From: a virus
Lineage: Duplodnaviria; Caudoviricetes
Virus record (IMG/VR): IMGVR_UViG_3300032225_002310
Coordinates: 18,326-82,325 of that record
Strand: one strand, 5' to 3'
Length of the DNA: 64,000 bases
The translations under genes were made by a program, and so were the position numbers. Positions 1,458 through 53,808 of the stretch are shown here, piece by piece (the stretch's first letter is position 1; each line of letters begins with the position of its first letter). Under the pieces are notes generated by a model. That model searched no databases and was not told the origin of the DNA. It worked only from the letters and a program-made list of their open reading frames with translations.

Positions 1458-1845
1458 GGGCGCGTACTGGTTTCGATTTTAGAGATCGGAATTAAAATGC
1501 AAGTGGAGGTTGAATCGAGGACTCCTTAAAAAGTTTCACTTATATTAACTGCCAAAACAGCAAAATATAAAGGTCACATTTCTGCAAGAGCTTCTCTTGT
1601 TGAATTGACCGCTTCTGTAGCTTAAGTTCTACAGCGTGACTACCTTGACACATCTATTGGATAGTTGCGTAATTAGATGTCTTATTATTAATAGTTTTTT
1701 TATTCTGTTAATATTAAGTATTAAAAATAAACTCGCTTAGTATGTTTGTTGTTTATCTATACAAAGCTAAAAATAAAAACAACTAAACTTGTAGTATTTT
1801 AATTTAGATTTTTAAAAGACGTATGTTCAACTCATACCGCGTCCA
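1458..1845 (+). ncRNA. ssrA: tmRNA (transfer-messenger RNA)
   Basis: 5' GGGCGCGTACTGGTTTCGA. Acceptor stem GGGCGCG/CGCGTCC with G3-U70 and discriminator A. T-arm GTATG-TTCAACT-CATAC. H2 pairings (AATTAAAAT/ATTTTAATT, GCAAGT/ACTTGT). TAACT before resume codon GCC; stop codon in the loop of hairpin CTGTAG..CTACAG. Confidence 0.95.
1551..1625 (+). other. tmRNA tag reading frame AKTAKYKGHISARASLVELTASVA*
   Basis: 24 codons from resume codon GCC at 1551 to TAA at 1623-1625. Confidence 0.85.
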
Positions 1846-17888: not shown

Positions 17889-18365
17889 ATGAAACTAATA
17901 TCACATAGAGGAAATTATAATGGAGTATATCCAGATAGAGAAAATAAACCATCTTATATTGATACTACAATATCAATGGGTTATGAGGTTGAGGTTGATG
18001 TAAGATACATCAATAATAAATTTTATTTAGGACACGATACTCCAGATACAGTAATATCCGAAAGTTGGATTCTTGATAGAAAAGATAATATTTGGTTTCA
18101 TTGTAAAGATTTATATTCTACTCAACAATTTAAAAAAATGAACTGTTGTATAAAATATTTTTGTCATTCAAGTGATGACTTTGTTTTAACAAGCACAAGT
18201 CATATATGGGTACATAATTTAGAATTAAAATTAGATGAAACTTGTATAATACCTCTTCTTGATGTGAAAAGTATCGAAGAGTATGATAATCAATTAGTTT
18301 ATGGAGCATGCACGGATTATGTAAATTTTTGTAAATATAATTTACGCCAAAAGGGATTATGCTAA
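17889..18365 (+). CDS. Glycerophosphodiester phosphodiesterase-like protein (short)
   Basis: LISHRGN; VEVDVR; LGHD; WFHCK. Confidence 0.7.
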   Translation: MKLISHRGNYNGVYPDRENKPSYIDTTISMGYEVEVDVRYINNKFYLGHDTPDTVISESWILDRKDNIWFHCKDLYSTQQFKKMNCCIKYFCHSSDDFVLTSTSHIWVHNLELKLDETCIIPLLDVKSIEEYDNQLVYGACTDYVNFCKYNLRQKGLC

Positions 18366-42406: not shown

Positions 42407-45400
42407 ATGGGAAATCCAAATAAATATTCAGATGGGTTAAGTTATTTGCTTTTTCCAGCTAATATTTCGAATGGAACTTGTGGATATAATTTTCCAGAAA
42501 GCACAGCTCAAGATATTGCTGGTTCTATTTCTTTAAGTTTTAGCGGAAGTCAACTTCCATATGGTGGGAGTACTTCGAATACATATAAAGGATTTTATAG
42601 AGGTCCAAGTGGTTTTGCTGCTAGATATACACCAATGGTAGTTATGACTGCTGGAGCTTTTCAAAATTTTAACAGTCAAGTAATCACCGCAGATACTTTT
42701 GGCGCACCAGATTTAAGATCTATATTTGGAGTATATGATAATTCTGTCACTGAAGCAAGTACTAGTCAAAGATTTAGAAATGGTAGAGCTTATAATTCAA
42801 TAGGACAAGTTGAAATTTTAGATTTAATATCTGAAGGACCAATTGAAGGTTTTGTTACTGGCACATATACTTACAGTTTAAGTGGAAAAACTACTGGAGA
42901 TATTGGATATGCAAGCGCTAAATTTCAACAATATTCAACTAATTATAGTTATAGCAAGCCAGAAACAAGATCTATTTATTGGAGTGATGTGCCCATAACA
43001 GATTTTGAAGGTTTTTATAATTTTCAATTTGTAGATTATAAATATACATATGGTCAAAAAACTAATGATCATACAGTTTATAATCCATATTTAAATCTTT
43101 ATGAATTTAGAACAAATTATTTTGGAAAACAAGTAGATCAAAATCAAATACCATTACAAACAAGTATTACAAAATATTATGGAGATAATTTATATGGACT
43201 TTATATAATCAGTGGCGCAAATAAAATTGTAACTCCTAAAACATATTATATATACAATATTAACGTTTCCAGTATAAAAGTTGCAATTGAAGTAGATGCT
43301 TTATATGAAGCTATAGTTACTGGAATATCTCAAGGAGATGTTGAAAAGCAAAATTTAGATTTAAAATTTTCTATTTATAGAATATTAGATAATGGCAGTT
43401 TAGTATCTTTAGATACATCTAAATATAATCCATATATTTCAGATTATTTCTCTAGGGATATTATAAGTGCAGAAGGTAAAATACAAAGTTCGCCAGTAGT
43501 TATAACTTATCATTTTAATTTAAGACCTTTCTCTGAAAACACACCAAATTTTCCACTTTTTCAAAATCAAATAGGATGGGCTATAGATGTAACAAAAATT
43601 ACATTAGAAAATACAAGTAGTACTTTAGTATCAAAAACAAAAGTTGGAAGCATAACAGAAGTTTATTCTGATAGATTTACTTATCCAGATGCTGCTTTAG
43701 TTTATTCAAAATTTGACGCAAGATATTTTAGTGATATTCCCAGCAGATCTTATAAAGTTAGATTATTAAAAGTAAAAATTCCAGTTAATTATGATCCAAT
43801 ATCAAAAACATATAATGGACCGTGGAATGGTAAATTTAAAATAGCATGGACAGATAATCCAGCTTGGTGTTTTTATGATATTTTAAGTAATAATAGATAT
43901 GGTCTGGGCAAATACATAAATGCAGAACTTACTGATAAATGGACTTTATATGAAATAGCTCAATATTGCGATCAATTAGTTTCAGATGGATTTGGAGGAC
44001 TTGAACCTAGATTTACATGTAATATATATATTAACACTAAAGAAGAAGCGGCTAAAGTTCTTAGTGATATGGCAAGCGTATTTTTAGCTATAATATATTA
44101 TTCATCTGGATTAATTTCTTTGTCTCAAGATTCTTTAAAAAATCCAATATATTTATTTAATAATAGCAATGTAATAGATGGAGATTTCAGATATTCAGAT
44201 GCTTCTTTAAAATCTAAAAAAACTATTGCCACAGTTAGATATAATGATAAAAATGATAATTATAAACCTGCTATAGAATACATAGAAGATAGAAATGGAA
44301 TATTAAAATATGGAATTAGAGAAACTGAAATTGTAGCTTTTGGTTGCACTAGTAAAAATCAAGCTAGAAGAGTTGGAAAATGGTTATTAGCAACAGAAAA
44401 TTTAGAAACAGAAATGATTGAATTTAATTTAGGTTTAGAGGGCAATTATATACGTCCAGGAGATATTATATCTGTATACGATCAATATAGAAGAAATCCT
44501 TCTTATGCAGGAAGAACAGTCGAATTAACTACTGGATATGCTATATTAGATTTACCTTATGATTATATAAATACATATGCTATAACTGGAGTAAATGTTA
44601 ATAATTCAATTAAATTTAACGTAATAACTCCAACTTATAATTTAAATTTTGGAACGCAATTAGGAGATCTTTATGCAACAGGTTTTTCTATTGGATCTTC
44701 TGGAACTACTGGATTGAATAGTTCATTTATCAGAAAAAGCCAACTCCAATCTATTGACATATATAATCCACAAAATTATTTAACAAGTGGAAGTGGAATA
44801 TATAGTAATAATATAAGAATTAATTTTCCAACAAGTTTGTTAACTAGTGGGTATACCTTATCTCAAAATTCTGCTTGGAATATAGATGTAAATACTTCTA
44901 ATTATTCACAAGCAGGAATGAATACTGAATCTCCCATAAATAATCCAAGTCGTTATAAATATCCTGGATACTATTTAGAATCCTATTTAAATAAACCAAA
45001 AAATTATAGAGTAATAAATGTTAATCAAGCAGAAGATAATAAATTTTCTATAAATGCATTAGAATATAATTCTCAAAAATACGCAGATATTGATAATGCT
45101 GCGATTTTAGTCAATAAACCAATAAGACCAAATACTCCAAATGCCCCAAGTTTATATTTAACTGGAATATTTAGAACTCCAAATTTAGACTTTAATACTG
45201 GTTATTTAAATATGGATGGAACTTTAGGTGGACATTATATAACAAACCAAGGTGGAATTAATAGTGTTATGTATAATATAACACCAGATAAAAACGATGC
45301 TTTAGATAATTTATATTATGTATATGTAAAACCAGATTTTAATTATTTGAATTTAGAAGACGCTCCTCAAATATATTTATATAATGTATTAAATTATCAA

Positions 45401-45607
45401 GGTTTACGCACTGGATTAAGTCAAATTGATTGGCAAAATGGAACTATACCCCCATATTTAACTCCAACTGGTATAGGTAATTATTATTTTAAAATTTTTA
45501 CAGCTAATTCAATTGGAGAACTTTCTTCACCCGCTACTGGAGTTTATAATTTAACAGCACAAGCTTCATCAACTACAGTTCAAGCTTCTGGTAGAAATAT
45601 ATATTAA
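42407..45607 (+). CDS. Lambda gpJ-like central tail tip/host-specificity protein
   Basis: DLISEGPIEG; YPDAAL; WNGKFKIAWTDNPAWCFYD; RYGLG; EPRFTCN; FGCTSKNQARRVGKW. Confidence 0.9.
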   Translation: MGNPNKYSDGLSYLLFPANISNGTCGYNFPESTAQDIAGSISLSFSGSQLPYGGSTSNTYKGFYRGPSGFAARYTPMVVMTAGAFQNFNSQVITADTFGAPDLRSIFGVYDNSVTEASTSQRFRNGRAYNSIGQVEILDLISEGPIEGFVTGTYTYSLSGKTTGDIGYASAKFQQYSTNYSYSKPETRSIYWSDVPITDFEGFYNFQFVDYKYTYGQKTNDHTVYNPYLNLYEFRTNYFGKQVDQNQIPLQTSITKYYGDNLYGLYIISGANKIVTPKTYYIYNINVSSIKVAIEVDALYEAIVTGISQGDVEKQNLDLKFSIYRILDNGSLVSLDTSKYNPYISDYFSRDIISAEGKIQSSPVVITYHFNLRPFSENTPNFPLFQNQIGWAIDVTKITLENTSSTLVSKTKVGSITEVYSDRFTYPDAALVYSKFDARYFSDIPSRSYKVRLLKVKIPVNYDPISKTYNGPWNGKFKIAWTDNPAWCFYDILSNNRYGLGKYINAELTDKWTLYEIAQYCDQLVSDGFGGLEPRFTCNIYINTKEEAAKVLSDMASVFLAIIYYSSGLISLSQDSLKNPIYLFNNSNVIDGDFRYSDASLKSKKTIATVRYNDKNDNYKPAIEYIEDRNGILKYGIRETEIVAFGCTSKNQARRVGKWLLATENLETEMIEFNLGLEGNYIRPGDIISVYDQYRRNPSYAGRTVELTTGYAILDLPYDYINTYAITGVNVNNSIKFNVITPTYNLNFGTQLGDLYATGFSIGSSGTTGLNSSFIRKSQLQSIDIYNPQNYLTSGSGIYSNNIRINFPTSLLTSGYTLSQNSAWNIDVNTSNYSQAGMNTESPINNPSRYKYPGYYLESYLNKPKNYRVINVNQAEDNKFSINALEYNSQKYADIDNAAILVNKPIRPNTPNAPSLYLTGIFRTPNLDFNTGYLNMDGTLGGHYITNQGGINSVMYNITPDKNDALDNLYYVYVKPDFNYLNLEDAPQIYLYNVLNYQGLRTGLSQIDWQNGTIPPYLTPTGIGNYYFKIFTANSIGELSSPATGVYNLTAQASSTTVQASGRNIY

Positions 45608-45611
45608 TTTT

Positions 45612-47039
45612 ATGAAAGTTAAAAATTTAAATATAACCTTGGAATGGAATACAATTAATAATCTTTATAATTTTACAGAACTTGAAATTGAAAGAAAATT
45701 TCCATCTTATGATGTAACAATAAGAAATGAGAATGGAACTGTTTTATTTAAAAAATTAAACTCTAATGAGTATATAAATATGATAGAACGTAGTTTTGAT
45801 GATCACGGTTCAGAGCCTTGCATGAAAACTAAATTAAATGTTGGTATCAGCAAAAGTACTGTAAAAAGTATTTTTAAATATAATTTTTCAGATAACTACT
45901 TAAAATACAAAGAATTAAATAATAAAATAGGATTTTTTAAAAAATTATTATTTTGCGTAGATTATGACAATGATGGAAAAGCAGATTTTGTTGAAGAAGC
46001 TGAATATGCAGAAATTGAAAATTTAAATAAAAATGCTCTTTTTAATAAAATTTATCGTAGTAGTGATTATCTTAGTTTAAAATTAATTATAAATAAACAA
46101 TACTTCAAAGAACAAGAAATCTATTCATTACTTATATTGAGTGAAGTTTCCAATAAATTAATTAAAAATAAAAAGTTAACAAATTTATTTACTGAAAAAG
46201 TAACAGAAAAATGGCTTGACGTTAATGAATCAACAGCTTTATTAACAATACCTTTTATTGAAAGTGATATTGTTGAAATATCTGAAAATTTAAATATCAA
46301 AGTTATTCCACTTAATTACCTTCAATCTGAAATGTATAATTTTCTAAGGCCAAGAGAATCTCAAGAAGATATTAATAATTTATACGAAGAATATTTCGCT
46401 AATCAAACATTTAATATTGGTAAAATATATAAACAATCTGTAAATAATGAAACTGTGGTATTCTATCAAAATTACTTATACTTATTCAATAATCATAGTT
46501 TAAATTCAAATAGCTTAACTTCAAATTTATCAATTAATGATATGGTATTTAATAGTTATTTCCCATTATTAAATAAAGATCAAGCAGATAAGACTATATG
46601 CTTATCTGATGATTTAAATACAGATGATGTGCTTGATAATAATTATAACCTACAAAAGGGATATTTAGGCTTTTATGGCAAAGATTCGACTTCTTATGAG
46701 GATGTAGCTATTGACCTAGATTATCTCCAAAATCAAGGTGTACTTCAAGCCAAAATCACTGAAATCGAAGAAAATAACGATACTTGCAATATTTATATTG
46801 AATATATAACTACTTTTTATAACAATGAAAAGTTCTATATAGAAAGTAGCAATAATCTCAAATATATTGAAAAATATAAGACAAATATTGATAACAAGGA
46901 TTATACTACTTTATTATTTAAATATTCCTATAATCTACAAACTTTAAATGAATTTTTAAACGAAAATCCTTCTATAAACAAATCCCAAATTATATCAGAT
47001 AAAGATTTAATTAATTTTTCTGCTAAACTAATATTATAA
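45612..47039 (+). CDS. Hypothetical protein (last gene of the tail-tip operon)
   Basis: 475-aa ORF, no motif recognised. Confidence 0.75.
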   Translation: MKVKNLNITLEWNTINNLYNFTELEIERKFPSYDVTIRNENGTVLFKKLNSNEYINMIERSFDDHGSEPCMKTKLNVGISKSTVKSIFKYNFSDNYLKYKELNNKIGFFKKLLFCVDYDNDGKADFVEEAEYAEIENLNKNALFNKIYRSSDYLSLKLIINKQYFKEQEIYSLLILSEVSNKLIKNKKLTNLFTEKVTEKWLDVNESTALLTIPFIESDIVEISENLNIKVIPLNYLQSEMYNFLRPRESQEDINNLYEEYFANQTFNIGKIYKQSVNNETVVFYQNYLYLFNNHSLNSNSLTSNLSINDMVFNSYFPLLNKDQADKTICLSDDLNTDDVLDNNYNLQKGYLGFYGKDSTSYEDVAIDLDYLQNQGVLQAKITEIEENNDTCNIYIEYITTFYNNEKFYIESSNNLKYIEKYKTNIDNKDYTTLLFKYSYNLQTLNEFLNENPSINKSQIISDKDLINFSAKLIL

Positions 47040-47040
47040 A

Positions 47041-50000
47041 TTATCTTTTGCGATAGAACGAAGAGCTTAATAAACCACCTGGTCTTTGCTGTTCTGTTAT
47101 AGTCATTAAAACTTGATCTTTTATTTGTTGAGCCATCAATTTAACTTTATTTGATTGATCTGTAGCAGTTTGGTTATTAGATGATTCTGAGGATGTAGCG
47201 CTTTGTCCTTCTATGTTAACAACGATGCTTATATTGTTATTATTTGAATTAGTTTTTTCATTATTCAAGGAATTATCTTTTTGAATTCCACCAGTATATC
47301 CACCTTCTGCAAATTTTCTTGCTCTTCCAGAGTTAAGATCATCAAAGAATTTTTTACCATACATATTAACAGCTTCTTTTCTCATTAAAAATTCACCGCC
47401 CATTAATAGAGCTGGAATATCATCTTTACCACTAGAGCCACCATTTGCAAAACCTTTAATATAACCACCATTTGCTCTTGGCGTTGGAATACTGTAACGA
47501 AGCGGAGAGCTATTCGCATAATTTTGTCTTGCAGCAGATCCACCTCCTAAGGCTGCTGATGCTCCATATTTTGATGCGCTACCACCAATACCCCCAAAAC
47601 CTCCCATTGATGAAAATTGACTTGCTCCTGCCCCAAGAACACCAAAACCAAAACTCATCCATGCACCTTTACTTTTGGCCCTTTGTTGTTGATTGTATTC
47701 ATCTCGAATTTTTTGATTTAATTCTATATTTTCTTTTAATGCTCTTTCATTGTCTAACCTAACTCCTTCAACATAATTTAAATAATCATATAAAGCTTGC
47801 TCTCTTTCTTGATTAATTCTATTTTGAGGATTATTAGGGTCAGTAACTGCCATATAACTTAATCTTGGATCTGCTACGTAATTTCCACCAGTTGGATAAA
47901 GAGGATCATTGTATCTATAAACATTTTCTCCAAAAAATTGGGCTTCTCCACCAGACGCAAATTTTTGAATTCTTCCTCCATAACGATAACCTTTTGGCTT
48001 ATTATGTGATCCTAGCATCGGAGAAAATCCCCCTTGACTTCCACCTCCAGCACCAATATCAGCTCCCGTTACTCCTTGCATTTGCGCTGCTCCAACTATA
48101 GCGCTCGCAGCAGATTGAAATATACTTGCAAATCCACCACCTTCTCTCTGTTGGACTTTTCCTTGATTTAACATTTGCAAATATTCTGGACCATATTTTT
48201 TAACAGCATTTTTTCTAATAACATACTCTCCACCACTTAACATAGCTGGAACATCATCTTTATTTCCAGATCCACCAAGAACATGTCCTCCAGTAGAATA
48301 ACCCTTAATCATTCCACCTTTTGATTTAAATAATGATCCGAAGAAATCTCCAACGCCGCCACTACTACTCGCTTTACCAAATAAATTACTAGTAGTACCA
48401 AAAAGCGCACCAAAAACTTGATTAGTACTCCATTCTAGAGCTAATTGCTGGATTTTATCACTAATATTAAGAGCCATTTTTGTGAAAGCATCACTAGCTG
48501 TAGCCGTTCCATTAGCAAAAGATAAAAAGGCGTTATTGAATTCACTTTTAATTGTATTCGCAGTATCTTTTGCTCCTAATTGAATTTGCCTAAATGAATC
48601 TGCAGTACTATTATCAAATTCATCAAAAAATGCTCCAGCAAAATCTGATAATTTTGTTTCATTAGCTAATATATTCGCTTCTCTATTAGATTGTCTTCCA
48701 CTTCTAAAATCTTCTGCAAAAATTGTTCCTTGCTTTCTTTGTTCTAAAAGTATTTTATCTTTTAGACCTTCAAGGGCTTTAGCGTATTGATCTTCTGTTA
48801 TTTGTCTATTTGTTAATTTTTCTCTTAGTTTATCTTCTTCTACTGTTAATTGCTCTATTACTCTATTTCTACTATCTGTATTAAGTATAGTAGTTGCAAC
48901 TGACATATTAAGATCATTTTGATTTTTACCTAACATTTCTAATGGATCATTTTTTAAGTCAAATATTTTCTTATAAAATTCTTGAGCATCTTTTGCATTT
49001 AATGTACCATCTTTAAATGCTAGGATATATTGATCAACAGTTGAAATTCCACTTTTTAATAAAGCTGTTATTTTTTCTTGATGCCTTAAAGTATCATCTA
49101 TATATCTTTTTATATCTTTAATTACTTTATCTGATGCTTCTTCAGTTATAGCTGTGTCTCCTACGATTTTAGATATTCTTTCAAATTCTTTTTTGGTTTC
49201 TTCCGTACTTTGATATAAAGGTTCTGATGCTTTTACGATTTCTATTAAATTTGTTTTTAATAAAATTGATTGTTTTTCAATTTCTTTTTGAGATTTTTTT
49301 TGAACCATGCTAGCTCCAATTCCACCACTTTCATCAAAATTAGCCATACCAGCACTAAATCCCATTGTATTTTGAGATGTATATTTAATTTGTCCTCTAG
49401 CTGTATATAAATCATTTAATCTATTTGATACATTTTTAAGCGTTTGTCTTCCTTCTGTATTTTTACTAAGCTGTTGAATTACATTTTTTCCAGATTCAGT
49501 TTGTAAAGAGGTTATTGCTCTTGAAATTCCAGTAGCAGTACTTTTATCTTTTACTATTGCATCTTTTGCAACTTGTTGAAATAATGCTTCTGCTCCTAAA
49601 TTTGATATTTCAGCAGATTTTTTGGAAAGAGCTTTATTTATTATAAATCCGACTTGATCATAATTTTGATTTTTTATAGATTCAAGTATTGCATTTGCAA
49701 ATTCTGGACCAATTTTATTTAAACTTCCAGAAATTTGATCTTGAATATTTGTTAAAGCTTCTGCTTTTTGAGTGTCTGGTAAACTAGAAGCTTGAACTTC
49801 TTTATATTTTTCAACTAATGGTATGATTTGATTTATAGATGTAGCAGTATTATTAAATTCATCTTGAAGGAATTGTATTTCATTTTTAAGTTTTTCAATA
49901 TCTAGGTTTTTAAGTGCATCAAAAAATTGAGATAAACCTAATGCAGTTCCCGCGATTCCTCCTGCAACTGCACCAGGAACTCCAAAAACTGATCCAGCAG

Positions 50001-53000
50001 CAGCAAGAGATACAGCTGTACTCAGAGCATCTATACCAATTTGTAATTTTTTATTTTCTTGATTAAATTGACTAAATGTTTGGAGAGCTATTGGTAAAAC
50101 TAAAGATAATGCAAAAGCTTTTTCGCTTATTTTCCCAAAACCTTTTGCGCTATTATCTATTGCAAGAGTAGCATTTTTTGCACTTGCTGCATATTTAGAT
50201 CCTCTACTTTCAAGAATTTGATTAAATCTATTTTGGCTGTCAGCAGCTAATCCATAATCAGCACTTAATTTTTGAAGATTTGTATTTGCTTGTTGTAATG
50301 TAATTTCTTGTTTTTTTAATTGCGCTAATATTCTTCCAAATTCTGCACCAATTTCTCTATTTGCAACTGCTGGATCAAGTGATCCTAAACCCCCAGGATT
50401 AAATGATAATCCTGCAAAATTAGGAATAAATCCAGCTGCTGCACCAGCCATTTTAGCTTTTGATCCATATCTTTGAATGCCTTGGCTAAGACCTTTAGGT
50501 TCATCTTTTGTATTATAAACTCCTAAACCAAGAGGATTCGCTGAAGATGTTAACCTTGCGTCTTTACCAATTCTTATTTTAGAAGTAGATGTTCCAGCTG
50601 CGACTTCTCTTCCAATTGCGTTATCTAATGCTGTAAAATTAGGAATAAATCCACTAAAAGCTTTTTTATCTTTAACTGTAGAAAATTTTCCTGCTCCAAG
50701 TAAAGCTCCTTCTTCTCTATAAATTTTATTTGCAAAACTTTGTAAATTACCTTCAGATAATCCACTTTTAAAATCTGCAAGAGGTGTTGTAAAACCAAAA
50801 AGTTTTTGTAAATGTATTAAATTTCTTCCTCCTCTAACGTCAAAATCTCCAAAATCTTTTGGTGCTTCTTCAGCAGTATATCCTAATGCCGTTTTTATTC
50901 CAACTTCAAAAGCAGAACCAACTGCACCACGAACTGCTCCGTATGCTCCTTTTTCTCCAGAACGTTGAAATCGTAATCCTAAATCTGCTTTACTTACAGT
51001 TTTTCCTAAAGGTTTTAATGTATCAATAAAATTAAATACATCATCTATGATACTATTAGTTATATTTGTGCCTAATCTTGCCTTATCATCAGAAATATCT
51101 CCATTTACTTGTTGACTATTAATTCCATAGACTGGAACATTTTTAATTGCAAATATATTAGATTTACCTTTTGGTGAATATGGTCCAGGTAATATTTTTG
51201 GTTTTCCAGAAAATGGTAATAATACACTAGCAATTTTACTAGCATCTACTGGTTTAATTCCTGCTGCTTGCGCTGCTCTTTGACCTTTGGGAGATCTGCT
51301 TAAAATATCATTTTTTTCAGATTCAGATACAGTTAAAGCATTTCCTTCTGAATCTACTCCATATTTAAATTTTTGAGTTCCTGGAATTCTTTTTAATCCT
51401 CCAGGTCGTTGGGCAGCTAATCTAACTGCATCTGCTCTTCCTTGTGCAAAATTTGGGATAAAACCATAAGCAGAGTTTATAGAATTATTGATTTGACCAT
51501 TTAAAAATCCGTTAATATCTTTTTCAAAAATTCTACGAGGTCCATTTACCTGCTTAATTGGCCATATTATTTGATCTTTATTTAACGGATTCAAATATAC
51601 AGATGCCCCACTAGTTTCCATGTCTGGTAGCAGTTCTGAATTTTTTAATTTATCTCTATTATATCTAACTAACCAAGAACTATTCTCAACAGATGCCCAA
51701 TTTTTTGCTCTTTTAATATTTTGTTTATATGCTTGCTTATCGCTCATTTTTGGCGATCCTGACATACCTCCTCTAGAGTTAGCATCCCACATATATGTTC
51801 CAGCTCCTGAAGAAGAGTAAGCTCTGACTGATTGAGCATCAGATATATTTTGAAAAGCAAAACCTTTTCCAAACTTAGATAACATCATTTTAAGTTCTTT
51901 ATCGTCTATTGCTCTTACGAGTGGGGCTGCAAAATTAGGAATAAAACCTTTACTCATATAAGGATTAAATCCATGAGCGCTAGAAAATTGTTTTTGATAA
52001 TTTTTTCCAGCTTTACTGCCTTGAGGTGGCATAATAGCTGGTTGAGTCATTCCTGGAAAATTTTTGACTGTTTCTGCGCTGTTATAAGTAACATTTCCTT
52101 GGCCTGGAATATTCATTTTTCGAATATTTCCTGGCATATATCCTCCAGCTAATGCACCATAAATTTCAGCAGCACTAAAATTAGGAATAAATCCAGCACT
52201 TTTTGCTTTTAATGATCCACCTTTAGCTGTTACTCCACGGGTAGCTAAATTACCAGCAATGGCAGTTGATATAGTTGAAGCTCTTTCTCTTTCTAATGTT
52301 TGAAGTTTTATAACATCTAAAATTCTATTTTCTAATTCTAAAACACTAATTTGTTTACTATATATTGCAGCGACTAATCCTGGTTCTTGAGCAAGAACTT
52401 CATTTATCTTTGCTTGAATTTGAACTCTTTGCTCTGCTTGAGTATTCACACTTAAAAGTGTTTGTAAAGATTGACTAGCAAACTTTCCTAAATTTAATAA
52501 TAATTTACCAAATACGGCTGTTAGTAAAATGACTCCTGGACCACTGATAAATGTTCCAATTCCTTCTAATATTCCTTTACCAATTTTACCACCAACACTC
52601 TCACTATCAGTAGATAAAGATTCTAATCCTTTATTCAATAATTCTAAAGTACCTTTAAATGTTGGTCCTAAACTTATTTTTCCAATATCTGAAGAAATAC
52701 GAGTTAAATTTTGAAATGTTTGATTAATTAAAGCTGAAAGGGTTTGATTTAATGCTTCATTTCTTTGAATAGCCTGATCAGTACTATTACTTGCAGCTTG
52801 CAAAGCTCTGTCATAAACAGAATATTCTTTTCCTAAATCTGCTAATGCTGCTTTTAAAATATTAATTTGAAATACGCCACCAACAGTTTCTGCGACTTGA
52901 GCTTTTTGTGAATCTGCTAAAGTATTAAATGTATTTGAAAGATTAGATAATACTTGAATTGCTGGTAATGTATTTCCTTCTAAATCTCTTACTTTAATTC

Positions 53001-53808
53001 CTATTTGCTCTAATTGATCCAGAGTATCTGTTCTTTGTATTCTTGTAAAAATAGTCTTTAAAGAATTACCAATTACTGCTCCACCTCTAGCTGTAGTTTG
53101 CTGGACACTAGTAACAATTGCTAATAATTCATCAAAATCAACTCCTGCATCAGCAGCAGATGATCCTACTCTTTTAATAGCTTCTGCAAGATCACCACTA
53201 CTAACTGCGAAGGCCGCATCAACATTTGCTAATTTATTAATAATAACTGTTGAATCTAATCCAGCTTTATTAAAACTATTAATCGTAGCAGTTAAAGCTT
53301 CTACTGCACTTACAGTATCAAGTCCACTAAGACGAGTTAATATTAGTGCATCTTGAGTTCTTTTTAAAGTCTCCTCTAATCCTAAACCTTGACGAGAAAG
53401 CTCTGTGGCAGCTTGAGCAACAACATCAAAAGTTTGACCTGTATTTTTAGCAATATCAAATAAACTATTTCCAAATTGATCTAATGTTTTAGTGCTAACA
53501 TTTAATATAACATTAATATCAGTTAATGATTTTTGAACATCTATAGTACTTTTAACTAATGAAGTAAATGCTTTTTCTACAGTATATATTAAACCTGCAC
53601 TAGCACCGAATGCAATAACGCGAGCATTTGATGCATCTAATGATTTTTGAAATTCATTTGCAGCACCAGTAATTCGCCCCAAAGGTTGAGTAAAGGCTTT
53701 TTCATTAAATCCTTTGAATTTAAAATCACGAGATAGCGCGCTCTGAATATCTCTTTCGAGCTGCCTTGTATCTGCACCTACCGAAATTGTAGCTGAAGTC
53801 CTAGCCAT
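47041..53808 (-). CDS. Tape measure protein (TP901-like core) with internal cassettes
   Basis: 2255 aa; N-terminal AATELSRQG..ALILTRLSGL..KLANVDAAFAVS..IGNSLKTIFTRI core; C-terminal KDDVPAMLSGGEYV motifs; lies downstream of the tail tube gene. Confidence 0.9.
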   Translation of the reverse strand: MARTSATISVGADTRQLERDIQSALSRDFKFKGFNEKAFTQPLGRITGAANEFQKSLDASNARVIAFGASAGLIYTVEKAFTSLVKSTIDVQKSLTDINVILNVSTKTLDQFGNSLFDIAKNTGQTFDVVAQAATELSRQGLGLEETLKRTQDALILTRLSGLDTVSAVEALTATINSFNKAGLDSTVIINKLANVDAAFAVSSGDLAEAIKRVGSSAADAGVDFDELLAIVTSVQQTTARGGAVIGNSLKTIFTRIQRTDTLDQLEQIGIKVRDLEGNTLPAIQVLSNLSNTFNTLADSQKAQVAETVGGVFQINILKAALADLGKEYSVYDRALQAASNSTDQAIQRNEALNQTLSALINQTFQNLTRISSDIGKISLGPTFKGTLELLNKGLESLSTDSESVGGKIGKGILEGIGTFISGPGVILLTAVFGKLLLNLGKFASQSLQTLLSVNTQAEQRVQIQAKINEVLAQEPGLVAAIYSKQISVLELENRILDVIKLQTLERERASTISTAIAGNLATRGVTAKGGSLKAKSAGFIPNFSAAEIYGALAGGYMPGNIRKMNIPGQGNVTYNSAETVKNFPGMTQPAIMPPQGSKAGKNYQKQFSSAHGFNPYMSKGFIPNFAAPLVRAIDDKELKMMLSKFGKGFAFQNISDAQSVRAYSSSGAGTYMWDANSRGGMSGSPKMSDKQAYKQNIKRAKNWASVENSSWLVRYNRDKLKNSELLPDMETSGASVYLNPLNKDQIIWPIKQVNGPRRIFEKDINGFLNGQINNSINSAYGFIPNFAQGRADAVRLAAQRPGGLKRIPGTQKFKYGVDSEGNALTVSESEKNDILSRSPKGQRAAQAAGIKPVDASKIASVLLPFSGKPKILPGPYSPKGKSNIFAIKNVPVYGINSQQVNGDISDDKARLGTNITNSIIDDVFNFIDTLKPLGKTVSKADLGLRFQRSGEKGAYGAVRGAVGSAFEVGIKTALGYTAEEAPKDFGDFDVRGGRNLIHLQKLFGFTTPLADFKSGLSEGNLQSFANKIYREEGALLGAGKFSTVKDKKAFSGFIPNFTALDNAIGREVAAGTSTSKIRIGKDARLTSSANPLGLGVYNTKDEPKGLSQGIQRYGSKAKMAGAAAGFIPNFAGLSFNPGGLGSLDPAVANREIGAEFGRILAQLKKQEITLQQANTNLQKLSADYGLAADSQNRFNQILESRGSKYAASAKNATLAIDNSAKGFGKISEKAFALSLVLPIALQTFSQFNQENKKLQIGIDALSTAVSLAAAGSVFGVPGAVAGGIAGTALGLSQFFDALKNLDIEKLKNEIQFLQDEFNNTATSINQIIPLVEKYKEVQASSLPDTQKAEALTNIQDQISGSLNKIGPEFANAILESIKNQNYDQVGFIINKALSKKSAEISNLGAEALFQQVAKDAIVKDKSTATGISRAITSLQTESGKNVIQQLSKNTEGRQTLKNVSNRLNDLYTARGQIKYTSQNTMGFSAGMANFDESGGIGASMVQKKSQKEIEKQSILLKTNLIEIVKASEPLYQSTEETKKEFERISKIVGDTAITEEASDKVIKDIKRYIDDTLRHQEKITALLKSGISTVDQYILAFKDGTLNAKDAQEFYKKIFDLKNDPLEMLGKNQNDLNMSVATTILNTDSRNRVIEQLTVEEDKLREKLTNRQITEDQYAKALEGLKDKILLEQRKQGTIFAEDFRSGRQSNREANILANETKLSDFAGAFFDEFDNSTADSFRQIQLGAKDTANTIKSEFNNAFLSFANGTATASDAFTKMALNISDKIQQLALEWSTNQVFGALFGTTSNLFGKASSSGGVGDFFGSLFKSKGGMIKGYSTGGHVLGGSGNKDDVPAMLSGGEYVIRKNAVKKYGPEYLQMLNQGKVQQREGGGFASIFQSAASAIVGAAQMQGVTGADIGAGGGSQGGFSPMLGSHNKPKGYRYGGRIQKFASGGEAQFFGENVYRYNDPLYPTGGNYVADPRLSYMAVTDPNNPQNRINQEREQALYDYLNYVEGVRLDNERALKENIELNQKIRDEYNQQQRAKSKGAWMSFGFGVLGAGASQFSSMGGFGGIGGSASKYGASAALGGGSAARQNYANSSPLRYSIPTPRANGGYIKGFANGGSSGKDDIPALLMGGEFLMRKEAVNMYGKKFFDDLNSGRARKFAEGGYTGGIQKDNSLNNEKTNSNNNNISIVVNIEGQSATSSESSNNQTATDQSNKVKLMAQQIKDQVLMTITEQQRPGGLLSSSFYRKR
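50416..52194 (-). repeat. Five GFIPNF-coding 18-bp repeats inside the tape measure gene
   Basis: Copies at 52177-52194, 51931-51948, 51448-51465, 50635-50652, 50416-50433; three are identical (aaaattaggaataaatcc on +). Confidence 0.95.

Follow-up and report, generated by a model that had tools for sequence, protein, structure and literature searches.

Module exchange at a repeated hexapeptide within the tape measure protein of an uncultured aquatic siphophage

Phage tape measure proteins occasionally carry an enzyme domain, and in a few model phages they are cut. Why should one of them contain, in the middle of its length, five copies of the same short peptide, GFIPNF? The question is raised by a 64,000-nucleotide (nt) stretch of DNA, here called the window (positions 18,326 to 82,325 of the IMG/VR virus record IMGVR_UViG_3300032225_002310); the record itself is 82 kb long, ~54% complete and ~28% G+C. 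The protein concerned, P0001, has 2255 amino acids (aa). Its sole Pfam match is PF10145 (101.6 bits against a cut-off of 33.2, E=7e-29), its PHROG matches are tape measure families (E=1.8e-53), and a gene for a lambda-J-like tail tip protein (1066 aa, 42407-45607, + strand) adjoins it on the opposite strand. The very long open reading frame (ORF), the PF10145 score above the gathering score and the position within a tail gene block identify P0001 as a TP901-type tape measure protein, and therefore as the tape measure protein of a large uncultured siphophage. The gene and the array in its middle part are laid out in the window as follows; model confidence is given as the predicted local distance difference test score (pLDDT).

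47041..53808, - strand: tape measure protein gene, P0001, 2255 aa (ORF; PF10145, E=7e-29; tape-measure PHROGs)
52876..53451, - strand: PhageMin_Tail (PF10145) domain, aa 120-311 (Pfam match)
52177..52194, - strand: junction motif 1, GFIPNF, aa 539-544 (pLDDT <50)
51949..52176, - strand: module A, 76 aa, in nearly all relatives, 64-99% identical
51931..51948, - strand: junction motif 2, aa 621-626; crossover point of the 155-aa indel and left break of the cargo replacements
51466..51930, - strand: optional 155-aa cassette, aa 627-781; absent from L001, in another slot in L026
51448..51465, - strand: junction motif 3, aa 782-787
50653..51447, - strand: core 265-aa domain, aa 788-1052, 'EDK' superfamily, N-terminal half variable (AlphaFold2 pLDDT 86; 88 clusters)
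50701..50952, - strand: conserved core of the 265-aa domain, aa 953-1036 (alignments of relatives)
50635..50652, - strand: junction motif 4, aa 1053-1058; right break of the cargo replacements
50434..50634, - strand: module B, 67 aa, in nearly all relatives
50416..50433, - strand: junction motif 5, aa 1126-1131; similarity to L002, L003 and L008 DNA ends here

The five in-frame copies of GFIPNF, at aa 539, 621, 782, 1053 and 1126, are separated by 76, 155, 265 and 67 aa, as a preliminary description of this DNA, made from its letters alone, had reported. That description also saw correctly that three copies are identical at the DNA level: they share the 18-mer GGATTTATTCCTAATTTT, and the remaining two carry one and three synonymous differences. 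A degenerate DNA pattern for GFIPNF matches five times, against 0.01 expected from shuffles, and in the rest of the 82-kb record the peptide is absent from every frame. Model confidence is low at all five motifs (pLDDT below ~55 in the stretches that contain them), both in an AlphaFold model of aa 525-1145 and, for the two motifs that bound it, in a model of the 265-aa segment. Helical sequence had been proposed on both sides of this island. Coiled-coil matches in the PDB (profile positions ~1040-1540) bear this out on its C-terminal side, whereas the segment directly N-terminal of it looks helical by eye only.

The motif and the arrangement around it are widespread. Searching with aa 520-1140 retrieved 827 proteins, nearly all of ~1900-2800 aa and with PF10145, and among tape measure proteins of metagenomic origin at least 200 relatives have the motif; no cultured phage with the island or the core domain was found. 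In almost all of the best 120 relatives the number of G[FY][IV]PN[FY] motifs is four and their spacing 76, 227-296 and 67 aa; a few add a fifth motif and an additional segment of 105-162 aa. Most of 85 representatives with less than 50% mutual identity share the architecture, with two to seven motifs. The frame of the array is fixed: small module A, one core domain and small module B, with optional cassettes before or after the core. In the relative P0180, two core E/D/DxK domains occupy tandem slots (aa 646-868 and 875-1120).

Over 486 instances of the motif in 120 relatives, the G and the P are present in every one (486/486 each) and the N in 482/486. The consensus in context is (A/K)(S/A)xG(F/Y)(I/V)PN(F/Y)(A/S/T), and GYIPNF is the commonest variant among the diverse representatives. 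Because the junction is so strictly conserved as protein, its G, P and N being essentially invariant within a disordered linker, it must also act at the protein level.

The DNA shows what else happens there. Similarity between relatives breaks within one codon of the motifs. The closest relative, L001, lacks the 155-aa module, and its two blocks of similarity to the window overlap by 22 nt, which is one motif. This single motif has the upstream flank of motif 2 together with the internal ATC/CCA variants and the downstream flank of motif 3, a hybrid composition that places the crossover in the first 8 nt of the motif, GGTTTTAT. In L007 and L008, similarity is lost one codon past motif 2 and returns at the first base of motif 4; in L002, L003 and L008, it is lost at motif 5. 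The sole strong DNA match of L026 to the window gene spans aa 621-788 (93.7% over 506 nt), which is exactly motif, 155-aa module and motif, in a protein that is otherwise dissimilar. There the module fills the slot bounded by motifs at aa 885 and 1047 of L026; it follows the core domain, which in P0001 it precedes. In L025 the 155-aa module is far more identical than its flanks, and the identity ends at motif 3.

The identity of a module is also uncoupled from that of its surroundings. In several relatives a big middle segment of 28-30% identity to that of P0001 is surrounded by flanks and by modules A and B of 89-96% identity; in others the middle segment is 87% identical and the flanks 28-46%; in further ones the 155-aa module is 94-95% identical and module A 64-75%. 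When middle-segment subtypes were mapped on a tree of the first 520 aa of 115 relatives (FastTree; the change counts are rough), at least 37 changes were needed (minimum 10; ~73 with shuffled labels), and the 155-aa module, with eight carriers, showed five changes of state. Together, these observations show that the 18-nt coding sequence of the junction, which recurs four to seven times per gene, is where related phages lose, gain, relocate and replace modules in frame, so the preliminary description was right to treat the motifs as boundaries of such units.

It had also regarded both large segments as swappable cargo, and asked whether the segments between repeats vary in number and fold. The first idea holds for the 155-aa module, which is present, absent or relocated, and for the number of segments, which varies. 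The 265-aa segment behaves differently: in 205/205 relatives examined, the middle segment belongs to one superfamily and keeps the same conserved residues, so that its fold does not vary.

Modelled alone, from an alignment of 40 diverse relatives, the 265-aa domain is predicted as a compact alpha/beta fold (pLDDT 86, predicted template modelling score 0.71); the motif at either end of it is disordered in that model. At 40% identity the middle segments can be divided into about nine subtypes, each of which has a Gly-rich helix (G..G......G..FE) ending in FE, an hD(F) strand and an [DE]xK strand. Residues G954, G957, G964, F967, E968, G987, D988, F989, D990, R992, F1004, D1012, K1014 and K1028 are invariant in the 40 diverse tape measure proteins. 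Even among 12 cassettes that are 18-39% identical, G964, F967, F989, F1004, D1012, K1014 and K1028 do not change, and E968 hardly does. The N-terminal half of the domain varies fast and the C-terminal core is fixed. A diversity-generating retroelement was considered for the variable half and rejected, since the 82-kb record holds no template repeat elsewhere.

An exhaustive search with the domain yielded 88 clusters at 50% identity, nearly all of them long tape measure proteins in which it lies at about aa 600-900; the few short matches look fragmentary. The superfamily is specific to tape measure proteins. Searches of Pfam, PHROG, NCBIfam, the PDB (by phmmer and by profile) and the ESM Atlas gave no match of significance for it. 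From its residue pattern we regard the core domain as a conserved, tape-measure-specific family that has no matching solved fold and is probably catalytic or metal-binding.

The other segments are less telling. Modules A and B had been described as resembling each other, a likeness that proved weak: a profile-profile comparison aligned 13 columns, covering a G...YN..E strand only (E=0.088), and BLASTP was not significant (E=6.9), so homology of the two is not supported. None of the four modules in the window has a significant match in Pfam or PHROG. For the 155-aa module, NCBIfam, PDB phmmer and the ESM Atlas returned no family; it has no stand-alone homologues of 85-272 aa, and its longer homologues are tape measure proteins only. 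The best match of any of the four, Peptidase_S7 on the 155-aa module (E=0.089), was rejected because this module contains no His and its GMSGSP comes too early for a chymotrypsin-like protease. The model of the whole island gave helix-hairpin noise only in Foldseek and VIA-align, and PDB profile searches returned coiled coils or noise only. An independent fold is predicted with confidence for the 265-aa domain and not for the 155-aa segment, whose model is of low confidence and for which no family was found.

More suggestive cassettes lie between the junction motifs of relatives, although every match given here is below the curated cut-off. A 135-aa cassette of P0113 (L010:2761-3165) is SNase-like (EcnA E=7.8e-5, NucI 0.0039; no Pfam match), with the DGD, R..VD..E and YGR residues of staphylococcal-type Ca-dependent nucleases visible. 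A 155-aa cassette of P0188 is adenylate-kinase-like (0.0012) and has a Walker A motif, and one of 105 aa in P0080 matches ParB_N (0.0065). The 486-aa cassette of P0127 (L013:4632-6089) is nucleotidyltransferase-like (0.012-0.02) and kinase-like (0.007); it combines a Walker A motif with a (T/H)xGH-type nucleotidyltransferase signature and has cytidylyl- and adenylyltransferase matches, so that it could be an NAD- or nucleotide-related enzyme within a tape measure protein. Such enzyme-like matches occur in only a few relatives, and the window's own modules have none. A 235-aa cassette of P0157 that by eye resembled an ADP-ribosyltransferase (YRG..STS) was dropped for want of family or PDB support.

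What, then, does the junction do? The reading we favour, to which we give a probability of roughly 0.55, is that the protein carries a mid-protein train of separately folding modules, that its conserved unstructured junction is both an exchange joint and a likely cut site, and that the modules are delivered. We infer the latter part as follows. The junction peptide would most likely be cut during tail assembly, by analogy with pb2 of phage T5, which is cut between SFVPR and AEGG. The modules would then occupy the tail lumen as separate pieces and, at infection, exit before the DNA together with the tape measure protein. In the host, the core domain and the accessory cassettes might act as ready-made enzymes or host-binding parts.

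The T5 precedent is instructive. Its tape measure protein pb2 is cut after R1127 in tail assembly, and the piece so produced is retained in the tail (PMC10038345). At R1127 the T5 record reads NSFVPR, followed by AEGG. The pattern [FYW][IVLM]P occurs once in the 1219 aa of pb2, exactly at the cut site (a coincidence of ~0.6%), and six times in P0001, five of them in the junction motifs. The two proteins share [G/S]F[I/V]P[N/R]; both are long siphophage tape measure proteins with a functional domain and a hydrophobic stretch near the site. They differ in that pb2 has one site and one C-terminal metallopeptidase, whereas P0001 has five junctions, four mid-protein modules and no peptidase domain found. 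The likeness lends some support to a role of the motif as a cut site. Two further regions of P0001 bear on this comparison:

49921..50115, - strand: hydrophobic Gly/Ala-rich stretch after the island, aa 1232-1296
47314..48336, - strand: C-terminal region with four (F/Y)(A/S)xGG motifs and two DD(V/I)PA(M/L)L..GGE units, aa 1825-2165

A second hydrophobic, Gly/Ala-rich stretch, at aa 413-445, precedes the island, so that the two flank it; if both were membrane-inserted at infection, the island would form a loop on one side. In the C-terminal region, the (F/Y)(A/S)xGG motifs stand at aa 1837, 1950, 2120 and 2166, and two GG.IKG(Y/F)..GG....DD(V/I)PA(M/L)L..GGE units form an 88-nt direct repeat of 75% identity.

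Several observations weigh against the reading we favour. The likeness to T5 comprises three residues (F-V-P) and their position, and T5 has R where the motif has N. The AEGG that follows the T5 cut resembles the C-terminal (F/Y)(A/S)xGG of P0001, and there are therefore two candidate counterparts of the T5 site; (F/Y)(A/S)xGG may be the true one instead of GFIPNF. No protease was found among the genes neighbouring P0001. The 265-aa model had no significant match in Foldseek PDB, VIA-align wide, a VIA second look or BFVD; the best structural Z was 5.1, for a helix hairpin only. In a lineage of shorter tape measure proteins (~1450-1650 aa), the core domain persists and the junctions are all degenerate, for example LIPRF (P0125, P0128, P0129, P0133, P0138, P0139, P0141, P0142 and P0147; in P0130 the variant is a doubled GHMPKF). 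Mosaicism extends to the helical part at aa ~1240-1640, which contains no junction motif, so recombination does not require the motif. Finally, the codons of the motif mostly track the codon bias of the gene, and the breaks at the motif may thus arise because selection keeps domains intact and not because crossover is preferred there; such selection could explain part of the break pattern. Extra conservation of the motif at the DNA level was rejected on the same ground: its most frequent 18-mer makes up 23% of copies, against ~5% expected, and these copies are non-independent.

A bolder form of the favoured reading we hold only tentatively. In a large group of uncultured aquatic siphophages, the tape measure protein would be a polymorphic polyprotein in which the hexapeptide is at once DNA joint and cut site, and changeable enzymes would be injected ahead of the genome. 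The injected set would comprise a new E/D/DxK enzyme family together with nuclease-, kinase- and nucleotidyltransferase-like extras. As for the preliminary description, which had proposed effector delivery through the tail with the repeats as recombination anchors or cleavage linkers, our results support it in part.

Possible, if on balance doubtful, is that the modules are not delivered enzymes at all. The core domain would instead engage an inner-membrane entry factor or be seen by host defences, exchange would serve host range and escape from defence, and the motif would be a flexible joint for tail-tube packing. Tape measure proteins do have such partners: that of lambda associates with ManYZ in injection, with an internal region (aa 300-400; A304V) setting ManYZ dependence, and the SNIPE defence binds siphovirus tape measure proteins, which phages mutate to escape (PMC13190303). 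The contrast between the fast-varying and fixed halves of the core domain would fit this role, as would the location of the island between two hydrophobic stretches and the confinement of the core domain to tape measure proteins, which is expected of a structural or entry part and not of a shuffled effector. However, acidic and basic residues that are invariant across variants of 18-39% identity suggest an active or metal site more than they do a variable binding surface, the accessory cassettes of relatives bear enzyme-type signatures, and nothing in this reading explains the invariance of G, P and N in the joint.

A more specific proposal, that the core domain is a PD-(D/E)xK nuclease injected to cut host or competitor DNA, strikes us as unlikely. 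The order of residues is suitable, with E968 (helix), D988/D990 (strand), D1012-x-K1014 (strand) and K1028 (helix) invariant in 40 relatives and FE, hD and [DE]xK kept in every core subtype, and the SNase-like cassette of one relative and the ParB-like cassette of another suggest a nucleic-acid theme. The confident model weighs against it: a helix lies between the two putative catalytic strands, and the matches in Foldseek PDB, both VIA-align searches and BFVD include no nuclease, so that the restriction-endonuclease-like alpha-beta-beta-beta-alpha-beta fold of this superfamily was not recognised in it. Nor did Pfam, NCBIfam or PDB profiles give a nuclease match for the domain.

Least credible is that the junction stays uncut and serves to dock a periplasmic chaperone or prolyl isomerase of the host (SurA- or FkpA-like), which would handle unfolded modules expelled into a diderm periplasm. 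The consensus recognised by SurA includes another aromatic residue, two positions further upstream, where the residue of the motif is variable. The proposal draws on an invariant Pro in a motif predicted to be disordered, on a YIPN plus an apolar residue that GYIPNF shares with WEYIPNV, a phage-display peptide that binds the P1 domain of Escherichia coli SurA with a dissociation constant of 1-14 uM (PMC7195389), and on HK97, whose genome injection reportedly involves the tape measure protein and a periplasmic chaperone (Cumby et al. 2015, as cited in PMC13190303). The match to WEYIPNV covers four residues, was noticed post hoc and may be chance, and this peptide is not known to have any connection with tape measure proteins. 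Relatives in genome collections lie on contigs binned only with aquatic diderm bacteria, which would also fit. Assignment of a host from these bins was dropped, the contigs being mis-binned in metagenome-assembled genomes of diverse diderm lineages.

How far is such an arrangement already known? Tape measure proteins of mycobacteriophages (TM4 and others) have embedded peptidoglycan-hydrolase motifs (Piuri and Hatfull 2006, PMC1796659). Like P0001, they hold small functional parts within a helical ruler, variable between related phages and thought to be active at infection; they differ in that these are recognisable cell-wall hydrolase motifs, whereas the modules of P0001 belong to no known family, are fenced by an invariant hexapeptide and undergo exchange at it. 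We know of no report of a repeated junction peptide in the mycobacteriophage proteins. Polyvalent proteins of phages and conjugative elements are giant, are co-delivered with DNA, have variable enzyme domains that include ParB-like DNases, and have been proposed to be released by proteolysis (PMC5512222, Iyer et al. 2017), an account that does not mention tape measure proteins. They depend on an MPTase peptidase within the chain, and packaging is mostly into the head, in contrast to the tail-lumen location and short linear junction motif considered here. No peptidase family was detected in the whole of P0001 (Pfam, E<=1), and no MPTase-type or other peptidase domain in P0001, P0113, P0080 or P0188.

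Sle1-type effectors of actinobacterial contractile injection systems have a tape-measure-like scaffold with exchangeable domains and are ejected from a tail-like machine (PMC13277306). They belong to contractile systems of Actinobacteria and vary in a C-terminal domain, with no junction motif named in the abstract, whereas P0001 is a phage ruler with internal, motif-fenced modules. Enzyme domains embedded in tape measure proteins, polyvalent delivered proteins and tape-measure-like effectors of contractile systems are thus known already. What is new is a dedicated, invariant junction peptide that fences a train of exchangeable modules; neither the arrangement nor the motif was found in the literature.

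The genes around P0001 add some observations of their own. The tail-tip genes (the J-like gene and a 475-aa gene, together 42407-47039, + strand) converge on the 3' end of the tape measure gene, an arrangement also present on the contigs of P0015, P0104 and P0013, whereas in L012, L013, L014 and L026 the downstream genes are co-directional with it. This difference in orientation suggests that the tail-tip block has been inverted within the group. The 475-aa protein (45612-47039, + strand), encoded 3' of the J-like gene, has a faint Intein_splicing match that is under the cut-off (E=0.035). ARAGORN called a transfer-messenger RNA gene at 1458-1845 (+ strand), with a long tag of 24 residues ending in ASVA. 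On the contig of P0015 (JGI 3300050517), gene calling splits the tape measure gene into two ORFs of 500 and 1441 aa in the same frame, separated by an in-frame stop ~27 aa before motif 1 that may be a sequencing error, readthrough or a real split. A natural split of the gene at the motif was considered and set aside, as the stop of P0015 is not at the motif and P0104 has an uncalled gap, which makes both uninformative.

The 'boundary sequence' is an old idea in the study of modular phage evolution. A junction that is crossover point and cut site in one would provide a tangible example, of which there are few. It would also define a second route, besides proteins packaged in the head, by which phages bring pre-made proteins into the host. 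The core domain, which is widespread, folds confidently in prediction, has an enzyme-like conserved site and matches no known fold, is a direct target for biochemistry, and with the motif as a query, metagenomes can be searched easily for delivered phage proteins.

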